From a bacterium (lineage in GTDB: Bacteria > RBG-13-61-14 > DATKZS01): a stretch of DNA of 64,000 nucleotides. This document shows, in pieces, positions 16,877 to 60,835 of this stretch. Both the position numbers and the translations under genes were made by a program. The notes under the pieces are model-generated. The model was not told where the DNA came from, did no database searches, and was given only the letters and a program-made list of their open reading frames with translations. The stretch covers positions 64,001 to 128,000 of the forward strand of contig CAXXFL010000001.1 in assembly GCA_963674965.2 (NCBI GenBank), in the 5' to 3' direction. Positions within the stretch are counted from its first letter, which is position 1; every line of letters starts with the position of its first letter.

Positions 16877-16977
16877 GGTTATTCTCCACGGCCCGCGCCC
16901 GGCGAACGCCGCAAGATGGAGACGGCGGATATCCAATGAGTCAAGGGTCCCTCCTTCCAGTTAGTAAATGAAAGAAC

Positions 16978-17003
16978 TTATCGGCATGCGCGTCCAGATT
17001 TGA
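16978..17003 (-). promoter_or_regulatory. Possible sigma28 (FliA)-type promoter
   Basis: Minus strand TCAA-N14-GCCGATAA; the -10 box is a perfect consensus match, spacing is one short. Confidence 0.4.
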
Positions 17004-17134
17004 ATAGTGGAAACGCGCCGACCCGATCTCTATGCTCTCCCATATAGAAGAGGTGGCGCCCGTTGGTATAGCTACCCCCTCGTTGTCTCGGGCGGCTTCG
17101 AATACTCCGTTATCCCCGTTGCACGAGCATTCAT

Positions 17135-46207: not shown

Positions 46208-46237
46208 GTCCGGCCTTTTAAGCTCCGCCCATTCGCC

Positions 46238-47044: not shown

Positions 47045-47052
47045 CCGCCCTC

Positions 47053-47547
47053 TTACTTGCTCCTGATCAATAAGCCCGCCACGTAAAACATGCGGTCCTG
47101 GGTGGGCGAGCCGTTCTTGCCGGCCACGCTGAAAGGTTTCCATCCCGTCCCGAACCCCGTTATCGAGCCCTCGCCCTTCCAGCCGTAGGAGTCTCCCGTG
47201 TCCGGGCAGGAAAGGTCGCAATATTGAGAGTCCACCGTCACCCGGAAATACTTGCCGCCCGCGGGCGAGTCCTCCGTCATGCCGTACACCCGGACCCCCA
47301 GCTCGGACACCCCGTCGGGTATCCAAACCACGCCGGTGAAAAGTTCCTCGGTGGATTGATTGGACACGTCGCGCTGGGCCTTGAAAACGTACTCCCACGC
47401 GCTCGAGTTATAGAACCTTCCGTGCGCGTTCAAAAGGGGCATGCCCTGGTGAAGCGCGTCCAGGTTGCCTTTGATCTTGCCCATAAGGGTCTGGTTGAGC
47501 GGACTGTTCGCGTCCACCTCGCCGGCCGCTATGTCGGTCCAAGCCAT
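47053..47547 (-). CDS. Putative short tail fibre/receptor-binding protein
   Basis: N-terminus MAWTDI...EVDANSPL.QTLM.KI..N resembles phage tail-tip anchoring segments; beta-rich C-terminus; AAGGAG RBS. Confidence 0.5.
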   Translation of the reverse strand: MAWTDIAAGEVDANSPLNQTLMGKIKGNLDALHQGMPLLNAHGRFYNSSAWEYVFKAQRDVSNQSTEELFTGVVWIPDGVSELGVRVYGMTEDSPAGGKYFRVTVDSQYCDLSCPDTGDSYGWKGEGSITGFGTGWKPFSVAGKNGSPTQDRMFYVAGLLIRSK

Positions 47548-47623
47548 CTCGATCTCCTTTTATTTAAGGCTGTCGCCGCGTCCGCCTCTCGCCTCGAGGG
47601 CCGGGGGCTGGGAGCGGCCAGGT

Positions 47624-48133
47624 TCAGTCGGCGGCCAGGAAATTTTTTTCCCGGAGCCAGGCGGCCCTTTTCAGAACGTCCCTCGAGTAGTCCTTGCCGG
47701 TGGTCGAGGAATCCACGTCGCGGCCCCGGATAAGGTGCCGCTCGACCCGGCCCATGCCGCAGTTGTATCCGGCCAGGGCCGCCCGAAGGGCCTTGTCCTT
47801 GTCCAGGTCGGGAAAGGCCTCGGCCAGGCGGTCAAGGTTCTCGCGCAAAAGGCCGCACCCGTAGGCCAGGTTGGCCGCCGGGTTGCGCCACAGATCGCCC
47901 AGCCCGACGAACCCCTTGTGCCAGCGGTCGTCGATCTGCATGAGTCCTCGCCCGTGTCCCTTGTCGCCCGTGTCCGGCGGGTTGCCCCATTTGCCTAAAA
48001 GGCGGCCCGCGCCCGACTCGCGGCTGATTATCGCGGCCACCACCAGGGGGTCCAGGCCGAAGCTTTCCGCCACCGCCGCTATCAGGGGCCCGATCATCTC
48101 GAGCCAGGGAAGGTCCAGTTCCATCGCCTTCAT
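47624..48133 (-). CDS. GH23 goose-type lysozyme/lytic transglycosylase (endolysin)
   Basis: Start MKAMEL at 48133; AIISRES, GD.G.G.GLMQIDDRWH, AGYNCG, TTGKDYSRDVLKRA. Confidence 0.85.
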   Translation of the reverse strand: MKAMELDLPWLEMIGPLIAAVAESFGLDPLVVAAIISRESGAGRLLGKWGNPPDTGDKGHGRGLMQIDDRWHKGFVGLGDLWRNPAANLAYGCGLLRENLDRLAEAFPDLDKDKALRAALAGYNCGMGRVERHLIRGRDVDSSTTGKDYSRDVLKRAAWLREKNFLAAD

Positions 48134-48408
48134 TTGTTCTCCTCCATGGTTTTCCTCCTCTCGTTCTCGCGCGCCAGTCCCTCCCGAATCTCCTCGAGGG
48201 AGGTCCACGCCCTCTCCAGGCCCCGCTTGATCTCGATCACGTCGTCGTGAAGCTCGCGGTGCTGGAGCGCGCAGTACTCGCGCGCCACTTTGCCGTCCAC
48301 GCTCTCTTGCATGGACTCGATCCGCTGGTTGTTGCTCTTCCAAACCAGCCCCCATAAAAACAGGATCGCCGCCCCGTCGATCAGTATCGACGGCAATACT
48401 CCTCCCAT
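48130..48408 (-). CDS. Putative holin-like protein (1 TM plus coiled coil)
   Basis: 92 aa, N-terminal hydrophobic helix, stop overlaps the endolysin start. Confidence 0.5.
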   Translation of the reverse strand: MGGVLPSILIDGAAILFLWGLVWKSNNQRIESMQESVDGKVAREYCALQHRELHDDVIEIKRGLERAWTSLEEIREGLARENERRKTMEENK

Positions 48409-48420
48409 TTCCTCACCTCC

Positions 48421-50352
48421 TTAGTAAACGTGGTAGCCGTCCTCGCCGTCCGGCCCCACCTTGTTGTCCCAGTCTCCTATCCAGCCGTGCCTCTCCCTCT
48501 CCTCGACGCTCGCCGACGAGTAGTCGTGGCCGACCTCGGCCGGCGAAATGAGCGGATAGCGCCGGGAAAGGTTGGTGTCGATCGCCGCGTACTCGAAGCG
48601 GTTGTCGCTTCGGGCCGACTTCTTGAGGACCTCGAAGAGCCTCCCCGCCAGCGGAGCGCCGCTCGCGTCCACCACGTCGCGGCTGGTGACGCGGACGAAG
48701 TCGCCCACCTTCAGGCCCGAGTCCTTGAGCTCGAGGGAGAAGCCCAGCGTCGGCGCCCCGCGCCCGTAGCGGATCAAATACCTCGAGGCCAAAATCAGCG
48801 CCTCGTTCTCGCGATATATCCAGTCGGCCTTGATCTCCTTGTTCTTGGAAAGACGGAAAAAGTCGTTGCTCTCGCTCTCGGCGTCTATATAAACCAAAAG
48901 CCCCGCGTAGGAGTCGGCCTCGTCTCCGGACGCCCCGGCCATGGGATCGTAATAAACCGTGGCCCGCGTGGCCTGGAGCTTAAGGCCCGGCTCCCAGCTC
49001 GTCGAGCCGTCGATGAAGCCCGTCTCGTCGTCAAGCTCGGCGGCGTTCCCCGCCATGACGGGCGGGGCCACGCACTTGGCCCATATTTTCGAGTCCTCCC
49101 CCTGCCAGACGTGAAGCATGGTCTGCTCGCGAAGTCCGTTGATGAGCTTCTTGATCGAGGTGGGCTTGTCCACCCTCCTCCGAAAAAGCGAGCCCGAAAG
49201 CCAGCGCCCCAGCTCGTCGCTGAAGACCACCACCGGCGCCGCCTCGTCCTGGCCGTGGCTCGCGGCCTCGGAGCCCAGCGCGCCCCTCTCCGTCGCGTGA
49301 ACGCCCGAGGAGGTCTTGCCCCGGTAGGAAACAAGCTCGTCTCCTATCCGCACGGTCCCGGTCTCGGGCAGGTCCCGGGCGTTATTCAAGCCGATCTCGA
49401 GCTCGGAGGCCCCGATGGACGAGGACAAGGTAACGCCCCGGTCCACCGCCGCCAGGTCGAGAGGGTCGATGCCGCCGCTCTCGCAGAGAAGAGACATGAA
49501 TATCTCGTCCGCCGGAAGTCCCTCCCCCGAGTCCTCCTCCGCGAAGACCGCGGCCTGGGCGACTTTGGTCCCGGCCAAGTGGGACGCCGCCGCCGAGCCG
49601 TAAGCCCCGCTCGAGCACCCCTCCAGCGTCTGGGCGGTCACGCCGGTGAAGGTCACGTACTCGTCCTCGATCTTGACCGCGCCGGGGGCCTCGAACTCGG
49701 CGCCGTCCGCCACGTGCATGACCGAGCCGCCGCTATAGTCCATGAGCAGGACGTTTTTCGAGGACTGGCGGGGAGGTATCTTTTTGTCCAGGAGCTTGAG
49801 CTGGTCCTTGACGATCAGCCGCGCCCTACCCTCCTCCCACTCGAGGCCGTCGATTACTCCCTTGAAGACCAGCCGATACTCCGAGACCTCGAGGCCGCCG
49901 AAGCCCCGGTAGACGCGGGCCGTCCGGCCCTCGAGGTTCGGGTTGCGGGCGATGAGGTTGCGGAAATAGGAGCCTCCCGTCTCGAGGCGGGAGACGGCCT
50001 TGTCCGGATTGGCCAGGGCGAGGGGCTCGTCGTCCAGGAACTCGATGGTGACGCGGGCCCGGCGGGTGACGCTCTCTCCCGGCTTGATCTCGGTGGGTAC
50101 CTCGCCCACGCTCGCGAGGTAGGGCAGGGCGCCCGGCAGCCTGGGACCGTCGGCCGAGCAAAAGCAATACTCCTTCATGGTCCTCGAGAAATCGGCCGGG
50201 GCCAGGCAGGTGGAATAGGTGTAGTAACAGCCCTCGCCGCCCGAGGCCCCGCACGGCGCCTGGCCGTACTCGTTCGCGCAGTAGTCCAGGTCAAGCGCGA
50301 CCAGCCACGTGACCTCCCGGCAAATCCCGGACCTTTTATCATCGTAGTTCAT
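48421..50352 (-). CDS. Putative tail tip/hub protein
   Basis: Follows the Dit-like gene; N-terminal DYC...YG.APC...C..T..TC; F.GVID..E; C-terminal LKVGDFVRVT. Confidence 0.65.
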   Translation of the reverse strand: MNYDDKRSGICREVTWLVALDLDYCANEYGQAPCGASGGEGCYYTYSTCLAPADFSRTMKEYCFCSADGPRLPGALPYLASVGEVPTEIKPGESVTRRARVTIEFLDDEPLALANPDKAVSRLETGGSYFRNLIARNPNLEGRTARVYRGFGGLEVSEYRLVFKGVIDGLEWEEGRARLIVKDQLKLLDKKIPPRQSSKNVLLMDYSGGSVMHVADGAEFEAPGAVKIEDEYVTFTGVTAQTLEGCSSGAYGSAAASHLAGTKVAQAAVFAEEDSGEGLPADEIFMSLLCESGGIDPLDLAAVDRGVTLSSSIGASELEIGLNNARDLPETGTVRIGDELVSYRGKTSSGVHATERGALGSEAASHGQDEAAPVVVFSDELGRWLSGSLFRRRVDKPTSIKKLINGLREQTMLHVWQGEDSKIWAKCVAPPVMAGNAAELDDETGFIDGSTSWEPGLKLQATRATVYYDPMAGASGDEADSYAGLLVYIDAESESNDFFRLSKNKEIKADWIYRENEALILASRYLIRYGRGAPTLGFSLELKDSGLKVGDFVRVTSRDVVDASGAPLAGRLFEVLKKSARSDNRFEYAAIDTNLSRRYPLISPAEVGHDYSSASVEERERHGWIGDWDNKVGPDGEDGYHVY

Positions 50353-50381
50353 CCGCGCCTCCAGTTAATCGGTCGTCCCCA

Positions 50382-51155
50382 TCACTCGCCCGCGCTTATC
50401 ATCTCGATCGCGAGCGAGCGGTAGGGCCCCTGATAGGGAGAAGAAAAGCCCGGCTCGGCCGAGCGGACCAGCGCCACGCGTCTCGGGTCGCGCGCCGGGT
50501 CCCAGGCGAAGAAGAAAGGCCTCAGGCCGTGCAGTCGCCAGAAGCGGGACCACTCCTCCTCGATAAAGCCCGGGTCCAGCCGATCGAAGCTGGCCCGAAT
50601 CCGGCGCCTCGAGTATTTTTGCGCCACGCCGAGAAGACGGCCCGTCCTTCCCGTCTCGGCGGCCATGGCCGTCTCGAGACCGTCGGGATCGAAGCCCGCC
50701 TCGGGAAAGGCCGGTATTTCCATGGCCTGGCCCACGAAGAGAACGCCCAACCGCGGGGCGGCCGAGTATCCGTCGGGTATGACCAGCTTGAAATAGCGGC
50801 GGCTTTGGACGGGAAAGCGGCAAAAGAACGCGGAGTCGTCCTCCGGCGCGGCCGGTTCCATGCAGTCATGGTAGATCGAGTCGTCGTCCGAGTACTTGAG
50901 CGCCAGGCCCGAGACGCCGCTCGAGGCCAGGTCATGTCCGGCTATCGCCAGGCAATCCACCGGGGCCTGGCAAGACTCGCCCGCGTCGATCTTGATCTCG
51001 AGGTCTCCCGAGGACGCCTCCGCTCGCCAGTGGGTGTAGTCCCTCCAGTCCAGGGCGTTCTGAAAGGGAAAACCCGCCGCGTCGGCCGGCCGCGTTACCG
51101 TAACGCCGTCCATGCTCAAAACGTTCTCCCAGGCGATCACCGGATAATCGCTCAT
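50382..51155 (-). CDS. Putative distal tail protein with carbohydrate-binding-like N-terminal domain
   Basis: Directly after the tape measure (ATGA overlap); GFP..NALDWRDYTHW, AIAGHDL, RYFKL, RPFFFAW.P. Confidence 0.6.
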   Translation of the reverse strand: MSDYPVIAWENVLSMDGVTVTRPADAAGFPFQNALDWRDYTHWRAEASSGDLEIKIDAGESCQAPVDCLAIAGHDLASSGVSGLALKYSDDDSIYHDCMEPAAPEDDSAFFCRFPVQSRRYFKLVIPDGYSAAPRLGVLFVGQAMEIPAFPEAGFDPDGLETAMAAETGRTGRLLGVAQKYSRRRIRASFDRLDPGFIEEEWSRFWRLHGLRPFFFAWDPARDPRRVALVRSAEPGFSSPYQGPYRSLAIEMISAGE

Positions 51156-51766
51156 GACGCCACCTCCAGGATCACGTCGTCGCTCAGGTTCTCGTTGATG
51201 GCGTCGATCAGCTCGCGAGCGAAGTCGTAGGTGTCGATCAGGCCCACGTTGCGGCCCACGTCCACCACCACCCGCGTTTGTCTCGTCTCCGGGTCGCTAT
51301 TGGAGGGGGCGGTCTCGGCCGCTGACCCCTGGCCGCCGGTCCGGTATCCCGCTACGCTTCCCCCACCCGACTTGGCGGCCTTGGCGTACTGCTGGGCGGC
51401 CAGGGCGTGCTTGAGCGAGCTGGCCAGGGCCGTCGGGTCCTTGGTCCCCAAAAACCTGGCGAACTCCTTGGTCGCCTCGGCGATCTCGAAGGGGATCATA
51501 ACCTTGGCCTGGTCCTTGACCGACCCGCCCAGCAGCGTGGCCATCGAGCCGGCCAGCTTGCCGTAGCTCGAGAGCTGCTCGGACCAGGACGACTGGCGGA
51601 GGTCCGAGATGAGAGACTCCCACCTCGAGACGGTCCCCGCCTTGTCCGAATAGGAGGTCTCGAGCTTTTCACGCTCGGACCCGAGGTATTGCTCGAGCAG
51701 GGCGGCCCTTTCGTCCATCATTTCCCTAAGCGCCTCCATGTCGGAGGCGAGCAACTGGTCATCCAT
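51152..51766 (-). CDS. Putative very short tape measure protein (~204 aa)
   Basis: Lies after the frameshifted chaperone pair; helical Ala/Leu/Glu-rich; G/S-rich linker, then C-terminal VVVDV...ARELIDAINE; GAGGAG RBS. Confidence 0.6.
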   Translation of the reverse strand: MDDQLLASDMEALREMMDERAALLEQYLGSEREKLETSYSDKAGTVSRWESLISDLRQSSWSEQLSSYGKLAGSMATLLGGSVKDQAKVMIPFEIAEATKEFARFLGTKDPTALASSLKHALAAQQYAKAAKSGGGSVAGYRTGGQGSAAETAPSNSDPETRQTRVVVDVGRNVGLIDTYDFARELIDAINENLSDDVILEVAS

Positions 51767-52019
51767 TTTCAATCTCCTCGATCAGGTGAAGGACCCAAAG
51801 GTCCCAGAACTCAAGTCCGGTCTCGGCCGCGGGATACCCGGCCTTTATCGGCCCGCGCCAAAGGAGGACCCGGATAAGCTCCGGCGACGCCTTCTCGATC
51901 GTCGGCTCGGAGCAGTTCCGGCAGGTCCAGTCCGAGTAGGGACCGAGGCGGTCCTCGCAGTCGGCGCAGCTCGAGGCCCGGCCCGAAAGAAAGGCCCGGG
52001 CATCCCGCGCTATTTTTTT
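51759..52019 (-). CDS. Tail assembly chaperone extension (gpGT-like), reached by -1 frameshift
   Basis: Open -1 frame after A AAA AAA; encodes CADC...CRNC; no ATG downstream of the shift site. Confidence 0.6.
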   Translation of the reverse strand, partial: KKIARDARAFLSGRASSCADCEDRLGPYSDWTCRNCSEPTIEKASPELIRVLLWRGPIKAGYPAAETGLEFWDLWVLHLIEEIENG

Positions 52020-52378
52020 AGGCCGCCCTCCCTCACGTGGGACGGCACGGCCGAAAGGTACTGGCCCAGGGCGATGGGTATGAGCGGACAGCGCTCGGCC
52101 AGGGCGTCCTTCCACCCGCCGCGCTCCTCCCCGGCGCCCGGCGAGGGCGCGCCGTCGATCTCGAGGTCGCCCTCCCCCACGCCGGTCACGCAGGCCAGGC
52201 CCAGCTCGAGGTTGGCGTGAAGGGCCCGGAGCGCGTCCTCATCCTCGCCGCCGCGGGGCATCTTCTTCACCATGGTCTCGATCACCTCGTCCATGGCCGG
52301 CCTTCTGTACCTCACCCGTATCTCGTCGTCTCCGACCCTTAGTCTCAGTTCTCCCTCTTTGCCGATCCTTAACGTCAT
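52010..52378 (-). CDS. Tail assembly chaperone (gpG-like)
   Basis: Start MTLRIG at 52378 (AAGGA RBS); between tail tube and tape measure; ends GGC CTA AAA AAA TAG. Confidence 0.65.
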   Translation of the reverse strand: MTLRIGKEGELRLRVGDDEIRVRYRRPAMDEVIETMVKKMPRGGEDEDALRALHANLELGLACVTGVGEGDLEIDGAPSPGAGEERGGWKDALAERCPLIPIALGQYLSAVPSHVREGGLKK

Positions 52379-52407
52379 GGCTTTATCCTTTCCGGCCCGG
52401 GCCGATT

Positions 52408-53682
52408 TTAAAGGTATCCGTCCACGCGGTTGTGGCAGCGTATAATCGCGCCGCCGCAAACGCCGTCGTCCATCACCACCAGGTCGCCCTCCTCGGAGAG
52501 CCGGCCGCCGCCGCTTACGATGGCCGACTTGACCAGCCCGCACCTGGGGAAAATCAGCTCGGCCCCGAAGCGCTCGCCTCCCTCGTCGATTTGGGCGCCC
52601 TCGAGCAAAAGGGCCAGCGCCAGGGTCTCCGTCTCCGGGTTGTCCGCCCGCCATCTGCCGACCGTGTTCCTCAGTCCCTCCGACAGGCTGATGGTGATCT
52701 CTCTCGCGCCGCGAAGCGCCAGGGCCGCCGGTCCCGAGTCGCCGGGAAACCTTTTCAGCTCGAGGTTGTTCTTGCCGGAAACGGAAATGGACTCGATCCC
52801 GGAGGATATGGTCTGGCCTCCCAGCAGGGTGGTCCCGTCGAAATAGGCGTCGGCTATAACTCTTGAGTCGATAAGCTTGAGGGGCGACTCGGCGGCCTCG
52901 GCGGGAAAGGCGGCCCAGTCCGGCGCGGGGACCAGGTAGTCCAGGTGGAACTGGACGTCCGAGGAGGACGAGCCGAGGGGCTGGACAAAGGTAATAACCG
53001 CGGGCTCGCCGTCGGACACGGAGGCGACCTCGAGGGTCGTCCAGGCCTGGCTTCCGGCGTCTTTGGCCCGGACCCGGTAGAGGTTGCCAAGACGCTCCAG
53101 AGCGGTGGCCCCCGCCACCTTGTTCGAGGCCAGCGTGATGGAGGCCGAGTCGGCCGGGGCCTCGATTACCTCGCGCTCGTAGTCGGTCTCGCGCGCGCCG
53201 GTCCCGATGACCTCGGCCGAGGCCGTGACCCATCCCTCCCCCAGCCCGATGGTGAAGGACTCGATAAAGTTACCCGAAAGGCGCTCGGTGAAAATCCCCG
53301 CGCCCCTTCGCTGCACGGCGGTGAAGCTGGGAAGCTCGAGGCCGGGAGCGGGACCGATTACGTGCTCGAAGGCCGTCGCGCCGACGGCCGCCGTCTGGAC
53401 CTCGCCGAGGAAATAGGCGAGGACGAAGGCGATGAAATCGGGCCTGGCCCGGGACTGGGCCAGGGAGCCCAAGGCGCCTCGAGCGGCCGAGAAAAGCCGG
53501 GTGGGAAACTCGGAGCCCGTAATCGAGCCGGCGTCGGTTTCTACCTCGGCCGAGCTTTGTATCCATGACCCCGGATCGAGCGGGAAAGAGGCCCCCGCCC
53601 GATTGGACGGCTGGTTCACCGCCTCTTCCGCGCCCCTGTAAAGGGCGATCCTTCCCAGGGCCTCGAGATTGTTCTTGATCAT
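52408..53682 (-). CDS. Putative major tail tube protein, possibly with an inserted accessory domain
   Basis: Start MIKNN at 53682 (AAGGAGG RBS); LPSFT, IESFTI...TASAEVIG.G, ISVSGKNNL, ELIFPRC; no sheath gene. Confidence 0.65.
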   Translation of the reverse strand: MIKNNLEALGRIALYRGAEEAVNQPSNRAGASFPLDPGSWIQSSAEVETDAGSITGSEFPTRLFSAARGALGSLAQSRARPDFIAFVLAYFLGEVQTAAVGATAFEHVIGPAPGLELPSFTAVQRRGAGIFTERLSGNFIESFTIGLGEGWVTASAEVIGTGARETDYEREVIEAPADSASITLASNKVAGATALERLGNLYRVRAKDAGSQAWTTLEVASVSDGEPAVITFVQPLGSSSSDVQFHLDYLVPAPDWAAFPAEAAESPLKLIDSRVIADAYFDGTTLLGGQTISSGIESISVSGKNNLELKRFPGDSGPAALALRGAREITISLSEGLRNTVGRWRADNPETETLALALLLEGAQIDEGGERFGAELIFPRCGLVKSAIVSGGGRLSEEGDLVVMDDGVCGGAIIRCHNRVDGYL

Positions 53683-53702
53683 TTCGATTCCTCCTTGATC
53701 CT

Positions 53703-54227
53703 TTAAAGGGCGAGTCCGGGACAAAAAGGCACGGCGACCTCGATCCCGGTCAGTGACGAGGCCATGGCGCCGTCGGTCCCCGTTTCGGTTTCATTGATCC
53801 GCGTCTGGATGATCGAGCAGGTCAGGGTCCCTTCCCCTCCCTCGATGGATTCGGCCAGCGCCTGCATGGGAGCGTCGGCGCGGTTCTGGGAACGCAGGAC
53901 CCGCTCGATCCTGGCGGCGATCCTTTTAATTTCGTCCTCGATCTTTTCCCTGTCCCTGCCGCGATGGGCCGCTCGGACCTCGAGCGCGAATATCTTGTTC
54001 ATGCGGGCGGCCGGGCACGCGGGCGTCTCGGTCTTGCCCGAGGCCCGGACCAGGACCGCGGGGAACTGGGAGGCCGCGAGGCTGTCGGGCGGTGAGCCGC
54101 CGCGCCCGAAGGTCCTCACCGCGGGACCGGCCGCCCGGTTCAGTCCGCCTTCCCCGGAGTCGGCCAGGAGCGTTTCGATCACTTTTTCCTCGACCTCGAG
54201 GTAGTCTCCATTCGCCAGGTTCGTCAT
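53703..54227 (-). CDS. Putative tail terminator/completion protein
   Basis: Position before the tail tube; QFPAVLV...F.LEV...I..I.RVL. Confidence 0.5.
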   Translation of the reverse strand: MTNLANGDYLEVEEKVIETLLADSGEGGLNRAAGPAVRTFGRGGSPPDSLAASQFPAVLVRASGKTETPACPAARMNKIFALEVRAAHRGRDREKIEDEIKRIAARIERVLRSQNRADAPMQALAESIEGGEGTLTCSIIQTRINETETGTDGAMASSLTGIEVAVPFCPGLAL

Positions 54228-54242
54228 GGCTTTTCCCCTTCC

Positions 54243-55034
54243 TCATCCCGGCCAGGGCCACTCGACGCCGCCGTCGGAACGGGACAGCTCTCCCCGATAC
54301 GCTGACACGGGACCTCGGTAGCCGGGCAGCCGCAGGACGGGGGTCTTGCCCTCCGAGGGCGTGAGGCGCATGAGCAGGGAAAGGGCGCGCTGATAAAGCT
54401 CCTCGTCGGCCCGGGCGTTGGCCCTTCCCATGAAGGACGCGCATTGCCAGGCGGACAGCTTGCGGCACGCGGTCTCGACCACCGCGGGCGTGGGCGTCTC
54501 GTCGTGGATCGAGGGAAAGGGCACGTCATAGCAAACGCGGAGGAAGGCGTCGATTTTGCGCGAGGCCTCGGCGATGGCCATGCTCACCATTTCCTCGGTG
54601 AACTCCTCGGGCCAGGCGCCGGGCAGCTCGGCCGCGACCCTTGCCGGCGTCGAGTAAAGAGGTCCCTCGACGCTTCCGGCCGCGACCTCGAAGGCCGCCA
54701 GCACGGTCGGATACGGGAAAACCTCGACCCCCGAGACGCGGGCGTAAACGTGGGCCTCGGCCACGCCGGCGGCGAAGCTCGCGAGCTCGATTCCCCCCAC
54801 GTACAAGAAGGGGCCGCCCTCCTGGTTCTGGGTCTCGTGATAGTCGTTGCCTTGCAGGATGGGGGGATCGCCGCCCGCGGTCGCCGCGGCCCTGACCGTT
54901 CCCCCGGCGTCGCGGAACTCGACCTTAAGGTCCGGGTCGTCCCAGTCCGGCAGGGTCCAGTGACCCAGGCCGTCGGGCACGCGGAAGTCGAAGCCGGCCT
55001 TTTCCGATCTCGAAAAAACTGGAAGCGAGTTCAT
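54243..55034 (-). CDS. Putative head-tail adaptor (Mu gp36/SPP1 gp15-like C-domain) with extra N-terminal beta domain
   Basis: YSTP..V...I.EAS.KIDAFL...Y.VPF....P.VV...C..L..W...Y..A...L. Confidence 0.65.
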   Translation of the reverse strand: MNSLPVFSRSEKAGFDFRVPDGLGHWTLPDWDDPDLKVEFRDAGGTVRAAATAGGDPPILQGNDYHETQNQEGGPFLYVGGIELASFAAGVAEAHVYARVSGVEVFPYPTVLAAFEVAAGSVEGPLYSTPARVAAELPGAWPEEFTEEMVSMAIAEASRKIDAFLRVCYDVPFPSIHDETPTPAVVETACRKLSAWQCASFMGRANARADEELYQRALSLLMRLTPSEGKTPVLRLPGYRGPVSAYRGELSRSDGGVEWPWPG

Positions 55035-56422
55035 TTTCTCCTCCATATTTCAGGTTGTCTTCTTATCGCCGCGCCGGGAACGCGAGGCTCGGTGACCTGC
55101 TCGAAGCCGGCGTCGATGGACATGGCCCTGGTCTTTCCCGAGGCGCCGCGGCCGGACCAGGGCCGTCCCAGGCCGAGGCAGGGGCTGAAGGTCCGGGGCG
55201 CGAGCCCGGCGTCGAGGAGGGGGTCGGTCTCGAGGGACGCCTGGTCCGTTCCCGTCCTGGCCCTCCACTCTTCCAGGCCCAGCGACTCTCCTCCCACCAC
55301 CGCCATAGCTCCGGACGAGCCGGGATGGAAACAGTTGCCGTCCGAGCGAAGGACCCGGACCTCGGCCGCGGCGTCGGCCCTAATGCACTCGAACTGGGAG
55401 CTTCCCCTTTCGAGGACGTTATTCATCATTCCCGCCAGGATGAGGGCCTTGTCACCCACGTGGCGGACGCCGAAGGAGTTGGCCTTGGCCGAGTTGTTGG
55501 CCAGGACGAAATAGACCTCGGCGTCGTTATAAATCCATTGGAAGCCGCCCATGGAGCGGCATCCGCTCATCTCGACCATGGTCTTGTAATCGTTTGGCGC
55601 CCCGGCGTAAGTCCCGGCGGCCTGGAAGGTCATGTCCTTAAAGTCGCAGCGCCTGATCGCGAGAAGGTCGGCGTTGACCAGGCAGACCCCGATATCGAGC
55701 GGCTTCTCGGGTGACCCCTCGAAGAGGCACTCCTCGATCCGCCAGTCCCGGACGACGGCGCTCCCGGGCCGGGCCGGCAGGATTCCCACCAGGGCGCCGG
55801 TGAACTTGATCCTCCTTACCCTCACGCTTCCCACGTCGCCGCTCTCGAGGCAGGCGCCGGCGTCCTCGCCGTCGAAGGTCACGGCGTTTCCCTCCTCGGC
55901 GTCTATCACCAGGGGATGGGCGGCGGTCGGGCTCAGGGTCGAGAGCGAAAGGGTCGCTCCCGAAACTCCCTGCCCGTAAACGCCGGCCCAGCCGCGAGCG
56001 TAATGGGTCTCGGCGAACTCGGACGGCCCGACCCAGGACAGGAGCGCGTCCAGGGCGGTTTGGGGCGAGCCGTAAGTCCGGCCCGGCCCGTAGTCCCACA
56101 CGGTCGAATGGGAGCGGTCCAGGCCCTCGGGGCCGGGGACGAGGGTCAGGGACGAGCCGAGGTTGGCCACGCGAAACGCGGCGCAGCGGGCGGCCGACTC
56201 GGCGGCGATGAACTCGCCGTCCTTGAATATAAGCGCCCTTTGTTTGAAGGAGGGCGGGTCTTTTTTCCTGAGGGCGGGCGGCAGGGCGCCGACCTTGTGG
56301 GCGCGCCACAGCCTTCCGCTTTTCTCGTAGTCCGTGGGCTCGACTCCATCGGGCATGGCGGCCGAGACCCATCCCTTGGGCAGGACGCCGTAGTCCTTGT
56401 CGACGATCAGCAAAGTGGGCAT
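55031..56422 (-). CDS. Right-handed beta-helix (pectate-lyase-like) protein
   Basis: IEECLF, IRRCDF, ANNS, MNNVL, SDGNCF repeats; C-terminal DPLL...SPCL..G...DAGFEQ. Confidence 0.6.
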   Translation of the reverse strand: MPTLLIVDKDYGVLPKGWVSAAMPDGVEPTDYEKSGRLWRAHKVGALPPALRKKDPPSFKQRALIFKDGEFIAAESAARCAAFRVANLGSSLTLVPGPEGLDRSHSTVWDYGPGRTYGSPQTALDALLSWVGPSEFAETHYARGWAGVYGQGVSGATLSLSTLSPTAAHPLVIDAEEGNAVTFDGEDAGACLESGDVGSVRVRRIKFTGALVGILPARPGSAVVRDWRIEECLFEGSPEKPLDIGVCLVNADLLAIRRCDFKDMTFQAAGTYAGAPNDYKTMVEMSGCRSMGGFQWIYNDAEVYFVLANNSAKANSFGVRHVGDKALILAGMMNNVLERGSSQFECIRADAAAEVRVLRSDGNCFHPGSSGAMAVVGGESLGLEEWRARTGTDQASLETDPLLDAGLAPRTFSPCLGLGRPWSGRGASGKTRAMSIDAGFEQVTEPRVPGAAIRRQPEIWRRK

Positions 56423-56507
56423 GGGGTAACTCCCTTTCCTATGGCTTGGTCATTATCGTCCGCGGCGGGGCTCGGGGCTCGGCGGCCGCGGGCCTTGCTT
56501 CCCCGGA

Positions 56508-57506
56508 TCAGGACGCGGCGCAGCGCCTGAGCTGCTCGGGTTCTCCCACGATGGCGCCGTACCTTCCCCACCCGGCGGTGGTCTCGGCGTAGGCGAGCAC
56601 GTCGCGCTCGGACAGCACGGTCAGGTCCATCCTGTTGCCGCTTTTTATCTTCCTTCCCGGCAGGGCCACGAAGTATTTGCCCGTCTCGGGCGTGGACAGG
56701 TCCTGGCTTTTAAGGCGCGTGGTGACGGCCAGCTTGACGTTGAAGTTGACCTCCCCCGCGTCGCCCGTGACCTGGCCGGAGACGGTGAGACGCAGAGCGT
56801 TCCTCATCCGGGACATGAGCTGGACCGGGCAGAGCACCACGAAGGACGAGTTGGCGTTGACCTCCATGCCCAGTCCCTCCATGTCATCGAGTATGGCGGC
56901 GCAGGCGGCGTTGATGGTCTCGGCGTCGCGGACGGCCTTGTCCTCGCCGGCCTCTCCCGCCCAGGCCACGTCCGAGTCGGGCCTCGCGGCGCTGATGAGG
57001 TCGTAATGGGCCTGGGCCTTGTGGGCGTACCATTTCGAGCGGAACTCTTTGGAGGCGTCCTCGATTTTCCAGTGCTCCTCGTCGTCGAACCACAGCCGAG
57101 ACCAGCCCAGGGCCCCGCCGTAAAGGTCGAAGTCCACGGTCACCTTCTCGCCGCTCACCTTGAAGACGTGGGCCTTCTCCCCCGGCTTGACGGCCCGAAA
57201 GCTGAGGCCGGAGGAAACGTCGACCAGGTCGAAGCCGTTCTTGCGCGTGCCCGTGAAGTCGATCACGTCGAACACCTCCATCCATCCCGCGTCGGGGTCC
57301 TCGACCTGGTGGTAGCGCGAGATGGCCTCGAGGGCGTCCTCGGGGAAGTCCCCCGGCGAGGTGAACTCCGAGACCCGGGCCAGGGTCTCGGCCGCCGCCG
57401 CCCGCGGACGGTCCATGAAGTACTGCACCGCCTCGATGAAGCGCTCTTGTCCGTCCGCGTCGGAAAGGTCAACCTTGTTCCAGTCGGATATCATCATTCC
57501 TTTCAT
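56508..57506 (-). CDS. Major capsid protein (HK97 fold, Mu gpT-like)
   Basis: 332 aa after the cement gene; F..VKPGE.A...YGGALGWSR.W.DD, VVLCP..L, YF...P, GWGRYGA; GGAGGAG RBS. Confidence 0.75.
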   Translation of the reverse strand: MKGMMISDWNKVDLSDADGQERFIEAVQYFMDRPRAAAAETLARVSEFTSPGDFPEDALEAISRYHQVEDPDAGWMEVFDVIDFTGTRKNGFDLVDVSSGLSFRAVKPGEKAHVFKVSGEKVTVDFDLYGGALGWSRLWFDDEEHWKIEDASKEFRSKWYAHKAQAHYDLISAARPDSDVAWAGEAGEDKAVRDAETINAACAAILDDMEGLGMEVNANSSFVVLCPVQLMSRMRNALRLTVSGQVTGDAGEVNFNVKLAVTTRLKSQDLSTPETGKYFVALPGRKIKSGNRMDLTVLSERDVLAYAETTAGWGRYGAIVGEPEQLRRCAAS

Positions 57507-57538
57507 TTTCTCTCCTCCCTCGATCATGCCCGAGGCGA

Positions 57539-57901
57539 TCAGTCCAGGACCATAAGGTCGATCAGCGCCGTCTCGTCCGAGGCGGCCGCCGCCTCGAGCG
57601 CCCTTCCGCAGGCCACGTTGTCCGTGGACTGGGGAGTCACAACGCCCGCCGACTCGTCGAAGTAAACCCGGTCGCCGGGCGATAAGGTCTCGCCCGAGGC
57701 CTTGGGCGCGAGTATCTTCTCGGCCTCATAGACCAGGACGAAGTCCGAGTTCTCGGGCGCGTCCTCGACCACCACGCCCACCGTGTCGTTCACCACGATC
57801 ATGTCGCCGGCCGACCGGCCCTCGCCCGCGCCCGCGGTCGCCCGCAGGGTCTTGGCCCGGCTTATGCTCGTCCTTAATTTCAATCCCGTCTCAGTCACCA
57901 T
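57539..57901 (-). CDS. DUF2190-like capsid cement/decoration protein
   Basis: AGD.IV....GV...K..GETL..GDRVYFD....VT......CG.ALEAAA. Confidence 0.75.
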   Translation of the reverse strand: MVTETGLKLRTSISRAKTLRATAGAGEGRSAGDMIVVNDTVGVVVEDAPENSDFVLVYEAEKILAPKASGETLSPGDRVYFDESAGVVTPQSTDNVACGRALEAAAASDETALIDLMVLD

Positions 57902-57928
57902 TTCCTTCTCCTTTCATTTCACGCTCGG

Positions 57929-59044
57929 TTAGAATCCTCGGGGACGGGGTATTAGGGGATTGTCCCGTCCCGCTCCCCACCGACGCGGCCTCTCGGGAGG
58001 GGCCGCCGACCGACCGACCGGCCAGGCCGACTTGAGCCTGTCGATCTTCCTCATCTCCGACTCGATCCTCTCTTTAAGCTCTAGCTCGAAGCCCGCTCCC
58101 TTCAGCGGCGGCCTGGTCACCAGGTCCTCGATGATGATCTCCCTTTCGATCCGGCCCAGGCTCGTGCCCTCGAGCATCCTGGCCGCGTCCACTCTGGCCT
58201 TTTCCGAAAGACGAGCCATGCGGGCCGCCTTTTTCAGCCTGGACAGCTCGCGGCCGGCGCGGCGGAGCTTTCCGTTCTTGGCCTCGAGTCCTTGCTCGAG
58301 GCCCTCCACCTTGGCGGCCTCCTTTCGGATCACGTCCGCCACGACCGGGTCGGACATGAGGCGCTCGCGGCCGAAAAGCTCCGAGGGAAGGGTCTCGGCC
58401 GGCGCGTCCGTTTCGCCGTCGCCGCCTTGCCTTTCGCCCGGCTCCTCGAACTCCTCGACCGCCGCCAGCACCGAGGCGTAGGCGAAGCCGGGACGGTCAT
58501 GGCCCGACCGGCCCAGGGCCACGCCCGTCACCTTCCTGACCGCGTCCACTATCCAGGCGCCGGAACTCCCGTCCTCACCGTGGCACTCGATCTCGGCCTC
58601 GATCGAGCACACGTCCAGGCGGCCCGACCGTATGTCCCGTTTGACCTCCGGGTCAGTCACCGCGGCCAGGCCCACGGCGCTGAGAAGTCCGTTCACCCTT
58701 CTCTCGCCGGCGGACACCACCTCGCCCACCTTGCGCCTGACCGCTCCCGCCGGGGCGTGGCAAAGGTAGAGGGGAACGCCGCTCCCCAGCCGGGCGGCCA
58801 GCTCGCGGACGCGCTCGCGGCTCCAGAACTTCCTTCTCGGAGAACCGCCCTTTCCGTCGTCGCTCATCCTTCCCCGCGAGTAGCCCTCGTGCCCCGCCAC
58901 CAGCTCGACGAACAGGGGACTCGAGTCCATTTCCTCGATCCGCCGGCGGAATCCCTCTCCCACCCGGGCCCTGGCCTCGAGGGCGTCGGTCTCCGTCGGG
59001 CCCGCGGCCACGAGGGTCAGGCCGGTTACCATTGTCTTTTTCAT
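57929..59044 (-). CDS. Prohead protease-scaffold fusion
   Basis: YLCH, VGEVV, I.SG.LD.CSIE, TGVAL...PGF..A, then coiled coil. Confidence 0.65.
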   Translation of the reverse strand: MKKTMVTGLTLVAAGPTETDALEARARVGEGFRRRIEEMDSSPLFVELVAGHEGYSRGRMSDDGKGGSPRRKFWSRERVRELAARLGSGVPLYLCHAPAGAVRRKVGEVVSAGERRVNGLLSAVGLAAVTDPEVKRDIRSGRLDVCSIEAEIECHGEDGSSGAWIVDAVRKVTGVALGRSGHDRPGFAYASVLAAVEEFEEPGERQGGDGETDAPAETLPSELFGRERLMSDPVVADVIRKEAAKVEGLEQGLEAKNGKLRRAGRELSRLKKAARMARLSEKARVDAARMLEGTSLGRIEREIIIEDLVTRPPLKGAGFELELKERIESEMRKIDRLKSAWPVGRSAAPPERPRRWGAGRDNPLIPRPRGF

Positions 59045-60360
59045 ATCTCTCCTCCTTCCTCTTCCTTACTGGGCTGGAAGACTTCCATCCCGCTTTCGCC
59101 CCTCGAGGCGGCCTCCTGTTTTTCCTTGTCGGGATCGACGTCGGGCAAAAGCCCCAGCAGGGTATCGAGCCCGATGGCGCCGGCCTGGAAGAGGGGCAGG
59201 TATAGCTCGGTGAGCCGCTCGATCTGGGCCCTGGTGACGAACTTCATGGAGGGTCTGACCTTGCCCTTCTTGAGGGGCGCGGCGCTCGCGAGGGCGTTTT
59301 CATTCCTCAGCTCGATGGCCTTGTCGAACAGCTCGGAGAACCCTCCCAGCCAGGAGCGCTGCTCGGAGATGGACACCAGGGCCACGGGCTCCATGGTGTT
59401 GTCGGCGGTGGCGCGGTTGCTCATGAACTCGGGAAAGCCCAGAAACTGCACGGGCACTCCCGCGCCTCCGGCGAGAATTTTGACCTTTGTCTCGATCTCG
59501 CGCTGGATGGAGTCGTATCCGGAGTCGCTCATGCCCACGAGGGAGAAGTCGGCCGGCCCGACGAAGACCTTTCCGATCTTCCAGTCCACGCCGGGAGCGA
59601 GAAGGCGCTCGTAAAGGTCCATGGCCTCCCGGACGTCCCGGGTCTTGAAGTAGGGGGTGGGCGAGGCGAAAAAGCGGTTGATCTTGCGCCAGTCGCGCAG
59701 GGCGTGGTCCACGTCCTCGGCCTCCTGGAGGAGCCCCGAAAGGGTCGGCGCCCCCTCGCGGCCGTGCACGCGGGCGTTGAACTTGATGAAGACGGCGCGC
59801 TCGGGAGGCACGCTCACCTCGCCTCCGTTTTCGTCCTCATAGGTGATGGCCGTTATTTCCGCGTAGTCGTCGCGGGCGTACTCGACCTCGTAGCGCGAGT
59901 CGTTCCAGGAGATGAAACGCGTCTTGATTGAGTCGGCCGCGGGTTCGTAATCGAGGGTGAGGAGCACCTGTCCCTCGAGTTCCTTCTCGACGGCGAGCTG
60001 CTGCCCGAACTGCCCGTCGAGGCGGTTCTCCCGGATAAGGCGGCGGAGGAACTCGAGCTCGGGTCCGGGTCCCTCGCCCGGAAGCGGCGCCGCCGACAAC
60101 CCGTTGGCCATGGCGAAGGCGGCCCTCGTGTCCACCAGACGCTGCACGAGCTGGTTGCCCGAGCGGGCGTAGCCCTTGTACTTTTGCACCAGTTCCGAGA
60201 CCAGTCTCTCCCGGTCCCGGTAGGGGTTGGCCGCCGGGATTGACTGGCCCGCCGCTCTTCCCGCCTTGAAGGACAAAACCTCTGACACGTACTCCTCGGT
60301 ACGGGCCAGCTTGATCTCGAGTTCCTTTGCCCTCGTCTTCCATTTCGATCTTCCAAACAT
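59041..60360 (-). CDS. Portal protein
   Basis: 439 aa, first gene of the cluster; V.R.VD..AAF, FIKFN...EG.P.L, GVPVQFLG....SNRATA; GGAGG RBS. Confidence 0.75.
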   Translation of the reverse strand: MFGRSKWKTRAKELEIKLARTEEYVSEVLSFKAGRAAGQSIPAANPYRDRERLVSELVQKYKGYARSGNQLVQRLVDTRAAFAMANGLSAAPLPGEGPGPELEFLRRLIRENRLDGQFGQQLAVEKELEGQVLLTLDYEPAADSIKTRFISWNDSRYEVEYARDDYAEITAITYEDENGGEVSVPPERAVFIKFNARVHGREGAPTLSGLLQEAEDVDHALRDWRKINRFFASPTPYFKTRDVREAMDLYERLLAPGVDWKIGKVFVGPADFSLVGMSDSGYDSIQREIETKVKILAGGAGVPVQFLGFPEFMSNRATADNTMEPVALVSISEQRSWLGGFSELFDKAIELRNENALASAAPLKKGKVRPSMKFVTRAQIERLTELYLPLFQAGAIGLDTLLGLLPDVDPDKEKQEAASRGESGMEVFQPSKEEEGGEI

Positions 60361-60835
60361 TTGATCCTCCCCTGAACTTGTTTTTTGCCTCTTACTAATG
60401 GCGAAACGGGCGCGTTTTTGTGGACCCCGGGTTGACGAAAAAGGGAAATGGGGGCGCGAGAAGGATATGCCGACGTGTAATTACTCGGCGTTACGGGAGG
60501 TTATGAAACGCGAAAAATTTTTCGTCCATCCTCCCTTGACGAGTTCAATTCAACCGTGACTCGACGAAAATAGGACTCGTTTATGGCCCCGCCTCGCGAC
60601 CTTAAGAGATCGTTACGCCGGGAGAATGGGCGCCCGGACGCCCGGCGGCGGCCGCCGCGAAATACGGGCTTGCTTGAGTCGGTTTCTTGAGATAATTTTT
60701 AGTCGTGTCCTTTTACCGCCCGGTCACGCCGGGCGCGGGCCCCTAGTTCACATCGCGGGTTCAAGGGGCCGCCTATTTCTTCCCGGCTCGGAAAGGCCTT
60801 CTCGAGGCGGGAGTTAAAAAATCGAGGAGGAGTGA

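Follow-up and report, generated by a model that had tools for sequence, protein, structure and literature searches.

The closest described systems are RcGTA, from the alphaproteobacterium Rhodobacter capsulatus, and FpGTA, from Faecalibacterium prausnitzii. RcGTA is described with a 49-nm tail and an oblate head holding less than 4.5 kb (PMC7296036). For agents of the RcGTA type, co-evolution of agent and host is reported (PMC10883770). FpGTA is a recently recognised, independent, gene-transfer-agent-like element. Its two operons lie ~125 kb apart and are near-ubiquitous in the host genus, and the published account ascribes no other prophage functions to it (PMC12946183, Nat Commun 2026).

We analysed a stretch of 64,000 nt (the window) from the genome G000. 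Positions 47053-60360 hold 16 tightly coupled minus-strand genes for phage head, tail and lysis proteins (Table 1). Like RcGTA, this is a head-tail cluster of ~14 kb without replication or integration genes. Both systems have genes at more than one locus, sugar-binding tip domains and vertical inheritance across a deep clade. Likewise, both have a very short tape measure (206 aa here, 216 aa in RcGTA g11; PMC7296036). Nevertheless, no homology to RcGTA is detectable by sequence: Pfam families typical of RcGTA did not appear, apart from one sub-threshold match to PF13550. The head genes are of another lineage (Phage_capsid_4, a Mu gp36-like adaptor and a cement protein), and the tube is of the fused double-domain T5/P74-26 type. 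TerL (the large terminase) is preceded by ParB-like and methyltransferase-like genes, whereas RcGTA has a g1-type TerS. The host also differs, being an uncultured non-proteobacterial phylum, and the function of the system is a predicted one.

FpGTA shares with the present system the two operons and, as far as it is described, the lack of other prophage functions (PMC12946183). However, FpGTA is podovirus-like, while the element studied here has a siphovirus-type tube, chaperones and tape measure. The head genes of FpGTA are accompanied by TerS and TerL, and operon II encodes tail and lysis functions; here the packaging genes are a separate operon. Conservation is at the phylum level here and at the genus level in FpGTA. 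For FpGTA, particles and ~9-kb DNA fragments are demonstrated (PMC12946183), whereas the present system is predicted from its genes.

The phage particle genes of this phylum are, in our view, strong candidates for a gene transfer agent that is new and was tamed independently. The first-pass annotation had proposed a host-maintained particle system in a non-alphaproteobacterial lineage. The tests on relatives, dN/dS, homologues and junctions support domestication, and a host-maintained, domesticated element is highly probable. We think it reasonably probable that the cluster encodes the structural half of a DNA-packaging particle system of gene-transfer-agent type, which derives from a siphovirus, was domesticated and is ancestral to the phylum. 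That the element acts as a true gene transfer agent is a view to which we incline with some caution.

Table 1. Features of the head-tail cluster and its upstream region (window coordinates).
Feature	Product	Length (aa)	Coordinates	Strand	Basis or detail
g01	probable portal protein	439	59041..60360	-	phrog_27684, E 5.8e-21
g02	putative prohead protease/scaffold	371	57929..59044	-	phrog_24820, E 1e-4; flanked by portal and capsid genes
g03	head decoration (cement) protein	120	57539..57901	-	PF09956 Phage_cement_2, E 4.6e-16, 59.5 bits
g04	major capsid protein	339	56508..57527	-	phrog_24071, E 4e-20
g05	right-handed beta-helix protein, possible depolymerase or spike	463	55031..56422	-	
g06	head-tail adaptor with Mu gp36-like domain	267	54243..55046	-	PF07030 Phage_Mu_Gp36, E 2.5e-6
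g07	neck protein (head closure or tail terminator)	174	53703..54227	-	position only
g08	fused double-domain tail tube protein	424 from M15	52408..53682	-	AlphaFold2 model and Foldseek
g09/g10	tail assembly chaperone pair		51759..52378	-	G 52010-52378; GT extension, -1 frame, down to 51759
g11	short tape measure protein	206	51152..51772	-	C-terminal ends of phrog_31452 and phrog_9483, E 3-5e-4
g12	tail-tip protein, Dit position	257	50382..51155	-	phrog_11633, E 4e-21
g13	tail hub / tip adhesin	643	48421..50352	-	phrog_11439 'tail fiber protein', E 3.4e-49
g14	holin-like small protein	92	48130..48408	-	hydrophobic N-terminal segment read from sequence
g15	SLT-type lytic transglycosylase	169 from M75 of long ORF	47624..48133	-	PF01464 SLT
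g16	small distal tail or fibre protein	164	47053..47547	-	slot
upstream	intergenic region		60361..60835	-	RBS GGAGG 60366-60370; diverged cis element copy ~60385-60413

An earlier count gave 15 intact minus-strand ORFs. Its coordinates hold, and the number becomes 16 with the -1-frame extension of the tail chaperone. The overlapping stop and start codons were read directly in the sequence: they share 4 nt (ATGA) at portal/g02, g05/g06, g11/g12 and g14/g15. The distances to the flanking genes are also as first described. Downstream, 8 bp separate the end of g16 (47053) from the end of an alpha/beta-hydrolase gene (47044). Upstream, 475 bp lie between the portal start (60360) and the start of an AMP-binding (acyl-CoA) ligase gene (60836). 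In each of two runs of a single sample, from which the assembly was probably made, a separately built contig of 26,021 bp covers 45500-61900 and shows 0 differences. Read depth over this interval is flat (~18x and ~16x), and the cluster has the depth of its flanks. Because of these spanning contigs and this flat depth, neither junction shows a sign of misassembly. The window contains no tRNA gene and no integrase: the genome's 12 Phage_integrase and 40 rve matches all fall elsewhere. No att-like flanking copies occur among the 20 largest direct-repeat families listed (at least 60 were found). Near the cluster and the packaging operon, we found no integrase, transposase or replication gene.

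The g01 product is probably a portal protein, with a sub-threshold Pfam basis. Its Portal_Mu match has an E of 0.005 in G000, and 8 of the 12 phylum homologues match weakly (best E 3.7e-4). The gene directly follows TerL in five relatives, and identity to 11 of the 12 relatives is 57-71%. The g02 protein had no match in the Pfam search. Its C-terminal half reads as charged and helix-prone, and it is present in 11 of the 12 relatives (31-43% identity). The g03, g06 and g07 genes are present in all 12. Of these, g03 also matches phrog_122 head decoration (E 7.6e-18), while g07 has no family match in Pfam or PHROG (33-43% identity to the relatives). For g04, the probable true start is M8 (57506). 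PF25209 Phage_capsid_4 is sub-threshold for this protein, although 28 of 50 family members match it (best E 4.3e-12); its AlphaFold model is of low confidence (pLDDT 36). The adaptor g06 reaches 28.1 bits for PF07030, against a cut-off of 24.7, and also matches phrog_195 head-tail adaptor. The earlier description of Mu-like head components is weakly supported. Its gp36 part stands above the cut-off, but Portal_Mu does not.

The AlphaFold2 model of g08 has a mean pLDDT of 84.1 and a pTM of 0.82. The predicted fold is like the two-domain tubes of T5 pb6 and P74-26 (Foldseek E 2.8e-8 to 2.3e-3, probability 1.0). The best match is the P74-26 tail tube (8ed0, E 2.8e-8); other top matches are the T5 pb6 (7qg9_A, 9iny_A, 5ngj_A) and DT57C (8hrg) tail tubes. 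The five best have TM scores of 0.43-0.63, normalised to the target. Fused tube proteins of this type in T5 and P74-26 build trimeric, not hexameric, rings. Sequence identity with them is 7-13%, and the likeness is one of predicted monomer fold. A g08 homologue, P0156, matches PF18906 Phage_tube_2 (32.1 bits, cut-off 27).

A slippery heptamer, A AAA AAA, lies at 52013-52019, immediately 5' of the g09 stop codon, and g10 is in the -1 frame. All 13 phylum genomes have an in-frame A AAA AAN heptamer close to the g09 end. The tape measure g11 has homologues of 192-211 aa in G001-G007, G009 and G010. The G008 copy (172 aa) is ended by a contig edge, and in G011 and G012 a 249-aa ORF occupies the slot.

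At the tail tip, the N-terminal half of g12 looks like a CBM32/discoidin sugar-binding module. Its profile matches the CBM32 module 4a42 (E 3.5e-5), and the F5_F8_type_C match is weak; the name Dit comes from position. Tail fibre/adhesin (hub) proteins of the small siphoviruses Oceanospirillum phage GJ44, Marinomonas phage P12026 and Idiomarinaceae phage 1N2-2 align with 70-90% of the hub g13, at 24-29% identity. The g16 protein has no family match in Pfam or PHROG. Its N-terminus is conserved in 7 of the 12 relatives, and its slot, directly 3' of the hub gene, is that of gp19 in P12026. In that phage, the distal order is like that of the cluster: tape measure, ~260 aa protein, ~600 aa hub and small protein. 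On the other hand, P12026 also carries replication initiator, DnaB helicase, resolvase and regulator genes, and the tape measure of this replicating phage has 640 aa, against 206 aa in g11. The g04 protein is 27.9% identical to the capsid protein of Microcystis phage MACPNOA1. Unlike the cluster, the records of these four phages are complete genomes of 31-42 kb. Identities to these small marine and cyanobacterial siphoviruses are low, and no one phage supplies both the capsid and the hub match.

Three genes vary among the relatives. The beta-helix gene g05, with no Pfam or PHROG match, gave as a lead a score of 0.95 to Beta_helix/NosD clusters in an Atlas feature search. By BLAST against the 12 relatives, it occupies its slot only in four of the same family (35-46% identity); a 26% match in G007 lies outside the slot. 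The holin-like g14, which matches no Pfam or PHROG family, is found in 4 of the 12. The g15 enzyme (PF01464 E 2.5e-7, 30.7 bits, cut-off 21.3) is found in 3 of the 12, at 59-65% identity. Lysis and spike functions therefore do not belong to every version of the cluster.

The terminase is not missing: in G000, TerL exists on another contig (C2; the cluster is on C1). It belongs to a packaging operon that the first-pass annotation did not notice, with two genes of unknown family, t0 (129 aa) and t1 (452 aa), a methyltransferase-like gene, a ParB N-domain gene and TerL. In G000 this operon is at least 323 kb from the structural cluster. It adjoins the portal gene in G001, G002, G004, G005 and G011. 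In G003 and G007, the operons point away from each other, and cellular genes separate them over ~5.8 and ~8.3 kb. The assemblies of the relatives are all fragmented, and for five of them a place on another contig is uninformative. Of ten flanking or intervening proteins scanned in relatives, eight belong to cellular families and two to no family. In TerL, the Walker A motif GHGKS is retained, and 114 positions do not vary among 11 sequences.

No classical small terminase was recognised in the system. The G000 ParB-like protein matches PF02195 (E 5.9e-12) and phrog_723 (E 6e-25). In the six relatives that cover the operon (G001-G005 and G007), a ParB_N protein and a weakly methyltransferase-like protein always lie 5' of TerL. 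ParB proteins are site-specific DNA binders. This constant arrangement would suit a system in which the two proteins guide TerL to a defined site. The DNA mobilised would then not be random but one given region of the chromosome or one element, as happens in lateral transduction or with a satellite. Nevertheless, no parS-like or pac-like site was identified, and neither operon has a conserved cargo region beside it, the flanks differing between genomes. We judge such locus-specific packaging quite unlikely.

We compared the gene transfer agent candidate across a phylum set of 13 genomes (G000 and 12 relatives), which takes in every sequenced species of this small phylum. The capsid and TerL genes are single-copy in all 13, and neither occurs in 28 genomes outside the phylum. 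Absence or pseudogenisation in relatives was not observed: the structural genes are intact wherever a contig covers them, and all 12 relatives keep the gene order of the whole cluster. The concatenated tree of seven cluster genes agrees with the species tree, which is one marker (RpoB) in 13 genomes. Each has seven well-supported inner branches, with 0 conflicts. Patristic distances of cluster and RpoB are correlated (Mantel r 0.927; 0 of 9999 permutations reach this value). The G000 end branch is the longest in the cluster tree (0.46; all other end branches measure 0.14-0.30).

Selection is far from neutral. In the closest pair, G002-G004, dN/dS (NG86) is 0.06-0.36 in 15 of 15 genes, at dS of 0.56-1.92. 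It means that these genes are under purifying selection. Pairwise values with G000 are higher (0.21-0.58), at dS near saturation.

The host-like base composition claimed for the cluster holds in part. The immediate flanks are also GC-rich (62-65%), but the cluster is not simply host-like, lying in the GC-richest part of the genome. With 65.9% GC, it ranks at the 99.97th percentile among 3207 windows, each of 13.3 kb; the mean for the genome is 58.3%, with an SD of 2.75. As Kogay et al. reportedly found in 2020, RcGTA also has a GC content above its genome mean, and the present cluster is alike in this. Across the phylum, cluster GC goes from 44% to 66% and tracks the rpoB locus of each host.

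Close homologues might have been confined to prophages. The nearest IMG/VR contigs share head genes only, at 35-43% capsid identity, with no tail genes in common; contigs with related head modules measure 4.9-92 kb. IMG/VR holds no clade member at 53% identity or more, and the phylum capsid clade is monophyletic (SH-aLRT 85). These head modules, the phage origin of the genes and the fact that MAGs can misplace contigs would agree with cryptic or defective prophages of one family that infect these hosts again and again and decay in them, or with an active temperate phage whose other modules were missed. This prophage reading is very improbable and already largely refuted. Against it stand the single-copy state of the two genes tested, the congruence with RpoB, the low dN/dS and a GC content ameliorated over a 22-point range. 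The operons lie apart, with cellular genes or at least 323 kb between them; no integrase is nearby, and no att-like repeat is among the families listed. The absence of clade members from IMG/VR at that identity and the equal read depth also argue against it.

The comparative evidence shows selection for a particle, not for gene transfer. It would also fit a PBSX-like killer particle, domesticated and DNA-filled, that kills or damages competing relatives and delivers no DNA for recombination. Sugar-binding tip domains and an SLT lysin would suit such a surface attack. However, the PBSX tail is contractile, whereas the tube here is of the non-contractile T5/P74-26 type, and the cluster has no tail sheath gene. 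The strict conservation of the TerL catalytic motifs, portal and neck genes is also hard to explain if the packaged DNA has no role. A killer particle is thus unlikely here, although the authors of the FpGTA account raise the same alternative for their system (PMC12946183).

The gene transfer agent that we favour would produce particles, package random DNA and transfer it. The last common ancestor of the phylum would already have carried the particle system, with a packaging operon and a head-tail(-lysis) operon; the holin-like and SLT lysin genes lie in the latter in the family of G000. The element has no replication, integration or lysogeny genes and its operons are at least 323 kb apart in G000; propagation as a virus is therefore not possible. 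A common upstream element may turn on both operons in some cells. TerL would load host DNA into HK97-type heads, perhaps with the ParB-like protein standing in for a classical small terminase. Short non-contractile tails, ~30 nm long, would join the heads, and lysis would free the particles. The sugar-binding tip proteins would dock them on related cells, where the DNA would be delivered.

In relatives, a TGCAAC-N-TTTCC element lies upstream of the portal gene and also of the gene that opens the packaging operon. The two G000 copies are diverged and were paired by eye; nhmmer gave nothing significant for the element in G000 (best E 8.2). Counted by hand, the G001 pair shares 26 of 28 nt, and the G007 pair shares an identical run of 18 nt.

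The packaging genes of the element lie outside the window and escaped the first-pass annotation. The large terminase gene (TerL) is on another contig of the same genome, G000. Five relatives have a gene of ~470 aa with Terminase_6N and Terminase_6C domains immediately upstream of the portal gene. Ahead of it are the genes of a ParB_N protein and of a protein with weak similarity to methyltransferases. The G000 orthologue (59% identical to the copy of the relative G002; phrog_38, E 1.5e-95) closes a packaging operon of five genes, and this operon is conserved in G001, G002, G003, G004, G005, and G007. Its TerL keeps the Walker A motif and shares 114 invariant positions across 11 sequences. For the products of t0 and t1, Pfam and PHROGs returned nothing, and an Atlas search with t1 reached only unnamed clusters (scores of 0.81-0.83) and gave no lead. 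In G007, TerL is broken in two pieces by an assembly gap of 102 N, so it is not a pseudogene.

Considering the distances to the contig ends (C1 for the cluster, C2 for the packaging operon), the two G000 operons are at least 323 kb apart. The complete element is therefore split over two places, with ~21 genes and 18.5 kb in total. The operons are divergent in G003 and G007, with ~5.8 and 8.3 kb between them. The intervening genes encode ferredoxin-type, membrane, hydrolase, AIR-synthase-like, and Fe-S oxidoreductase proteins. The packaging operon of G000 is flanked by radical-SAM, hydrolase, and phosphoesterase genes, and cellular genes also flank the element in G001 and G006. Ten flanking or intervening proteins were scanned. 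Eight belong to cellular families and two are without a family.

Some local features accompany this arrangement. The gap between the ParB-like and TerL genes of G000 holds a ~290-bp tandem duplication, in which the 3' end of the ParB-like gene and a GC-rich palindrome recur. Fragments of the repeat are present 5 kb away. The ParB-like protein of G000 is ~44 aa longer than in the relatives, apparently because of this duplication. The element has neighbouring alpha/beta-hydrolase genes in G000 (at each of the two operons), G001 (52% identical to that of the window), and G007. They may be the remnant of an ancestral neighbourhood. G000 also has 40 rve-type transposase matches. Many of these have the same score, and some are ~1.2 kb or less from the starts of contigs C2, C5, and C7. 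The contig breaks may result from this IS load, and so may the distance between the operons.

Features of the element and its surroundings, with their location, reading, and basis (L013, L014, L023, L083, and L085 are extracted loci; L083 is the packaging-operon region of G000)
Feature	Location	Reading	Basis
Structural cluster, 16 genes	window 47053-60360, minus strand
g01		probable portal	phrog_27684; Portal_Mu sub-threshold in 8/12 homologues
g02		putative protease/scaffold	position; phrog_24820, E 1e-4
g03		cement protein	PF09956, E 4.6e-16
g04		major capsid protein	PF25209 Phage_capsid_4 matched by 28/50 family members
g05		candidate beta-helix protein	lead from Atlas search alone
g06		adaptor	Mu gp36 domain
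g07		putative neck protein	position alone
g08		predicted tail tube, 424 aa	predicted fold match
g09/g10		chaperone pair	-1 frameshift
g11		tape measure, 206 aa	tape-measure PHROGs, E 3-5e-4
g12		tip protein, discoidin-like	4a42, E 3.5e-5
g13		hub/adhesin, 643 aa	phrog_11439, E 3.4e-49
g14		holin-like, 92 aa	read from sequence only
g15		SLT transglycosylase	PF01464
g16		small distal protein	position
Slippery heptamer A AAA AAA	window 52013-52019	right before the g09 stop codon
Chaperone -1 frame extension	window 51759-52010
Distal genes, G000	window 47053-48408	hub, holin-like, SLT, g16
Distal genes, G001, G002, G004	cf. L013 15625-16894	hub, g16, holin-like, SLT
Tip region, G011	L023 12380-17185
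t0		129 aa
t1		452 aa
Methyltransferase-like		215 aa
ParB_N		262 aa
TerL, last of the operon	C2:212156-213559	467 aa
ParB-like/TerL gap	C2:213560-213951 (L083 8560-8951)	392 bp
Repeat fragments	L083 3571-3873
Alpha/beta-hydrolase genes	window 46238-47044; L083 3977-4891; L014 20-826; L085 478-2804
Low-GC islands	window 16196-17626 and ~23300-23644	38-45% GC vs ~63% around

The genes of the structural cluster are separated by short gaps or overlap by 4 nt at their stop/start codons (ATGA). Their products were read through Pfam and PHROG family searches, profile searches, and one structure prediction (g08). The signs of a Mu-like head are mixed, with the gp36 domain of g06 above the cut-off and Portal_Mu below it in 8 of 12 members. 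Among the cluster proteins there is no Mu F-like match, and no transposase is near the cluster. In profile searches against PDB sequences, no informative match was obtained with the capsid protein (best E 0.11), the hub g13 (0.53), or the portal g01 (0.098). The AlphaFold2 model of the capsid, from an 11-sequence alignment, was unusable (mean pLDDT 36.1). Within the family, the distal genes occur in two orders.

The protein g08 is predicted to be a fused double-domain tail tube of the T5 pb6 / P74-26 type, with two tandem tube domains in one chain. The ten best Foldseek matches of its model (pLDDT 84, pTM 0.82) include the tail tubes of P74-26 and DT57C, T5 pb6, and further T5-type tail-tip chains. 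PF18906 is present in one homologue. Given this match to double-domain tubes, the tail would be non-contractile. The tube-type fold rules out a sheath as the reading of g08. Likewise, none of the 16 cluster proteins matches a sheath family, as a contractile particle of the PBSX or tailocin type would need. The single baseplate-wedge match among them is phrog_2885 on g13, and it is weak (E 2e-4). There are 24 other homologues of the tube, with 48-58% identity, and nothing more distant at the sensitivity of that search.

The chaperone genes conserve a recoding signal. In G000, g10 is in the -1 frame of g09, and an in-frame A AAA AAN heptamer is found near the end of the chaperone gene in all 13 genomes of the phylum. 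That this signal has outlasted the divergence of a whole phylum is a strong argument for continued tail assembly. The -1 frame extension shows a cysteine pattern, C-x2-C ... W-x-C-x-N-C, in all 12 relatives. This pattern, which comes with a weak match to a double zinc ribbon (E 0.0029), is unusual for the T domain of a tail assembly chaperone.

The tip proteins vary. In G011, which belongs to the deepest family, a CBM_4_9 module is present in the g12-slot protein, and the hub has 1103 aa and a Kelch beta-propeller. Within the phylum, the end of the particle that would bind the receptor has thus been reshaped. This variation is as expected if the particle has to recognise the surface of its own lineage.

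The element evolves as host genes do, by vertical inheritance and under purifying selection. The capsid gene is single-copy in 13/13 species-level genomes of the phylum, which are all those that the classification tool assigned to it, and it is present in 0/28 genomes outside. TerL is likewise in 13/13. The order of the cluster genes is kept in 12/12 relatives, whose assemblies are fragmented. A contig end accounts for the unmatched portal in G012 and tip genes in G008. The other unmatched genes are the variable ones (beta-helix, holin-like, SLT, and g16). Capsid identity falls with relatedness, from 74-77% within the family through 62-71% in the order to 53-55% for the deepest family.

We compared a maximum-likelihood tree of seven concatenated cluster proteins with a species tree from one marker, RpoB. 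Each has seven well-supported inner branches, and none is in conflict. The patristic distances of both trees correlate with r 0.927, a value reached by 0 of 9999 permutations, which overstates the case because related genomes are not independent. G000 has the longest branch of the cluster tree (0.46). In the closest pair, G002-G004, the NG86 dN/dS values are between 0.06 and 0.36 in 15/15 genes (dS 0.56-1.92). The values of distant pairs are upper bounds, since their dS is saturated.

The junctions of the cluster were as first described, with a convergent alpha/beta-hydrolase gene 8 bp away on one side and a divergent AMP-binding ligase gene 475 bp away on the other. In the first-pass annotation, a deletion or misassembly at either point counted against the system. 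Two runs of one sample, from which the assembly probably derives, each contain a 26-kb contig that crosses both junctions without differences and with flat depth. The read depth over the cluster is that of its flanks. On the other hand, the host-like composition noted in the first-pass annotation is only partly right. The cluster GC follows each host across the phylum, from 44% (G006 and G008) up to 66% (G000), but in G000 the cluster is in the GC-richest part of the genome (65.9% vs 58.3%, the 99.97th percentile). Raised GC has likewise been reported for RcGTA genes.

We also considered a functional temperate prophage. Neither a contiguous integrase or transposase, nor a repressor, a replication module, or att sites accompany the element. 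Of the 12 tyrosine-integrase and 40 rve matches of G000, none is less than 300 kb from either operon. The absence of tRNA genes was borne out for the window, and that of att repeats for the 20 largest direct-repeat families listed. Judging from its gene content, its cellular flanks, and its distant operons, the element is without replication, integration, and lysogeny functions, and would be unable to propagate itself.

The viral relatives are distant. The nearest IMG/VR contigs (16 loci) have capsids 35-43% identical. They share the TerL, portal, g02, and cement genes and none of g05-g16. A profile search of 1.84 billion representative proteins gave 345 capsid relatives. In a capsid tree of 69 of these relatives, the sequences of the phylum and two metagenomic representatives make one clade with moderate support (SH-aLRT 85). 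The isolated phages with hubs like that of the cluster are small siphoviruses. One of these, Marinomonas phage P12026, also arranges its distal tail genes as the cluster does, but its tape measure has 640 aa and its replication module is full. The sole match outside the phylum in species-representative genomes is L038, a locus of a MAG titled Candidatus Omnitrophota bacterium. Its head module (capsid 41%, portal 33%, and TerL 25% identical) comes with none of the tail genes.

Both operons may respond to the same signal. An element consisting of TGCAAC, 4-6 nt, TTTCC, and a purine-rich stretch is located 15-35 nt upstream of the portal start in most relatives, and a TGCAAC-type element is also upstream of t0. 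Counted by hand, the two copies share 26 of 28 nt in G001. In G007, they have an identical run of 18 nt, though 8 kb apart. This suggests a common switch for the two operons. The two copies of G000 have diverged and were paired by eye only. An nhmmer model from 13 instances of the relatives had no significant match in the whole G000 genome (best E 8.2), and the upstream region of neither operon was among the best 25 matches listed. We discarded a sigma-54 promoter reading of the TGCAAC element, since the GG of the consensus -24 box is missing.

In summary of gene content, the chromosome encodes a complete tailed-phage-like particle with its packaging motor: TerL, portal, capsid, neck, tube, chaperones, tape measure, and tip. 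We read it as a probable GTA-like particle system, phylum-wide and independently domesticated. The lack of a replication module and the unlinked operons imply that the terminase would have nothing but the host chromosome to package. The role of a small terminase may be taken by the ParB-like protein. At ~1.5 angstrom per residue, the 206-aa tape measure would give a tail of ~30 nm. The 206 residues are close to the 216 of g11 in RcGTA, whose tail with baseplate is 49 nm and whose oblate head holds <4.5 kb (PMC7296036). The element also differs from FpGTA, described in 2026 as podovirus-like (PMC12946183).

None of the families known for RcGTA was found by Pfam in the 16 proteins, apart from PF13550 at E 0.086. 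As no shared Pfam families were found, the element is not a member of the RcGTA family. No GTA of this phylum is reported in the papers listed for RBG-13-61-14 and for GTAs, and those listed for RBG-13-61-14 do not deal with phage-like particles in title or abstract opening.

A broader reading joins these observations, and we regard it as speculative and rather unlikely to be right in full. An independent GTA would descend from the common ancestor of the whole phylum. A ParB/CTPase-type protein, the methyltransferase-like protein, t0, and t1 would replace the small terminase. The promoter-like element would co-regulate the packaging and structural operons after their separation, and the 206-aa tape measure would reflect convergence on short tails in tamed phages. 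If this were true, only RcGTA in Alphaproteobacteria would be comparably deep.

To our knowledge, few GTA lineages are described, and only RcGTA has been studied over deep time. An unrelated phage lineage kept by a whole uncultured, sediment-type phylum would make particle taming recurrent and long-lived, and not an alphaproteobacterial oddity. The element is a natural comparison for traits that could be general in tamed particles, namely short tails, split loci, raised GC, and loss of a sequence-specific small terminase. With its 21 genes, frameshift site, and candidate control element, it also offers a handle on gene flow in an uncultivable phylum. The predicted DNA fragments of fixed size should show in long-read sequencing of virus-like particles.

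Finally, the window presents two low-GC islands with two small hydrophobic-looking ORFs. These islands may have been recently acquired.
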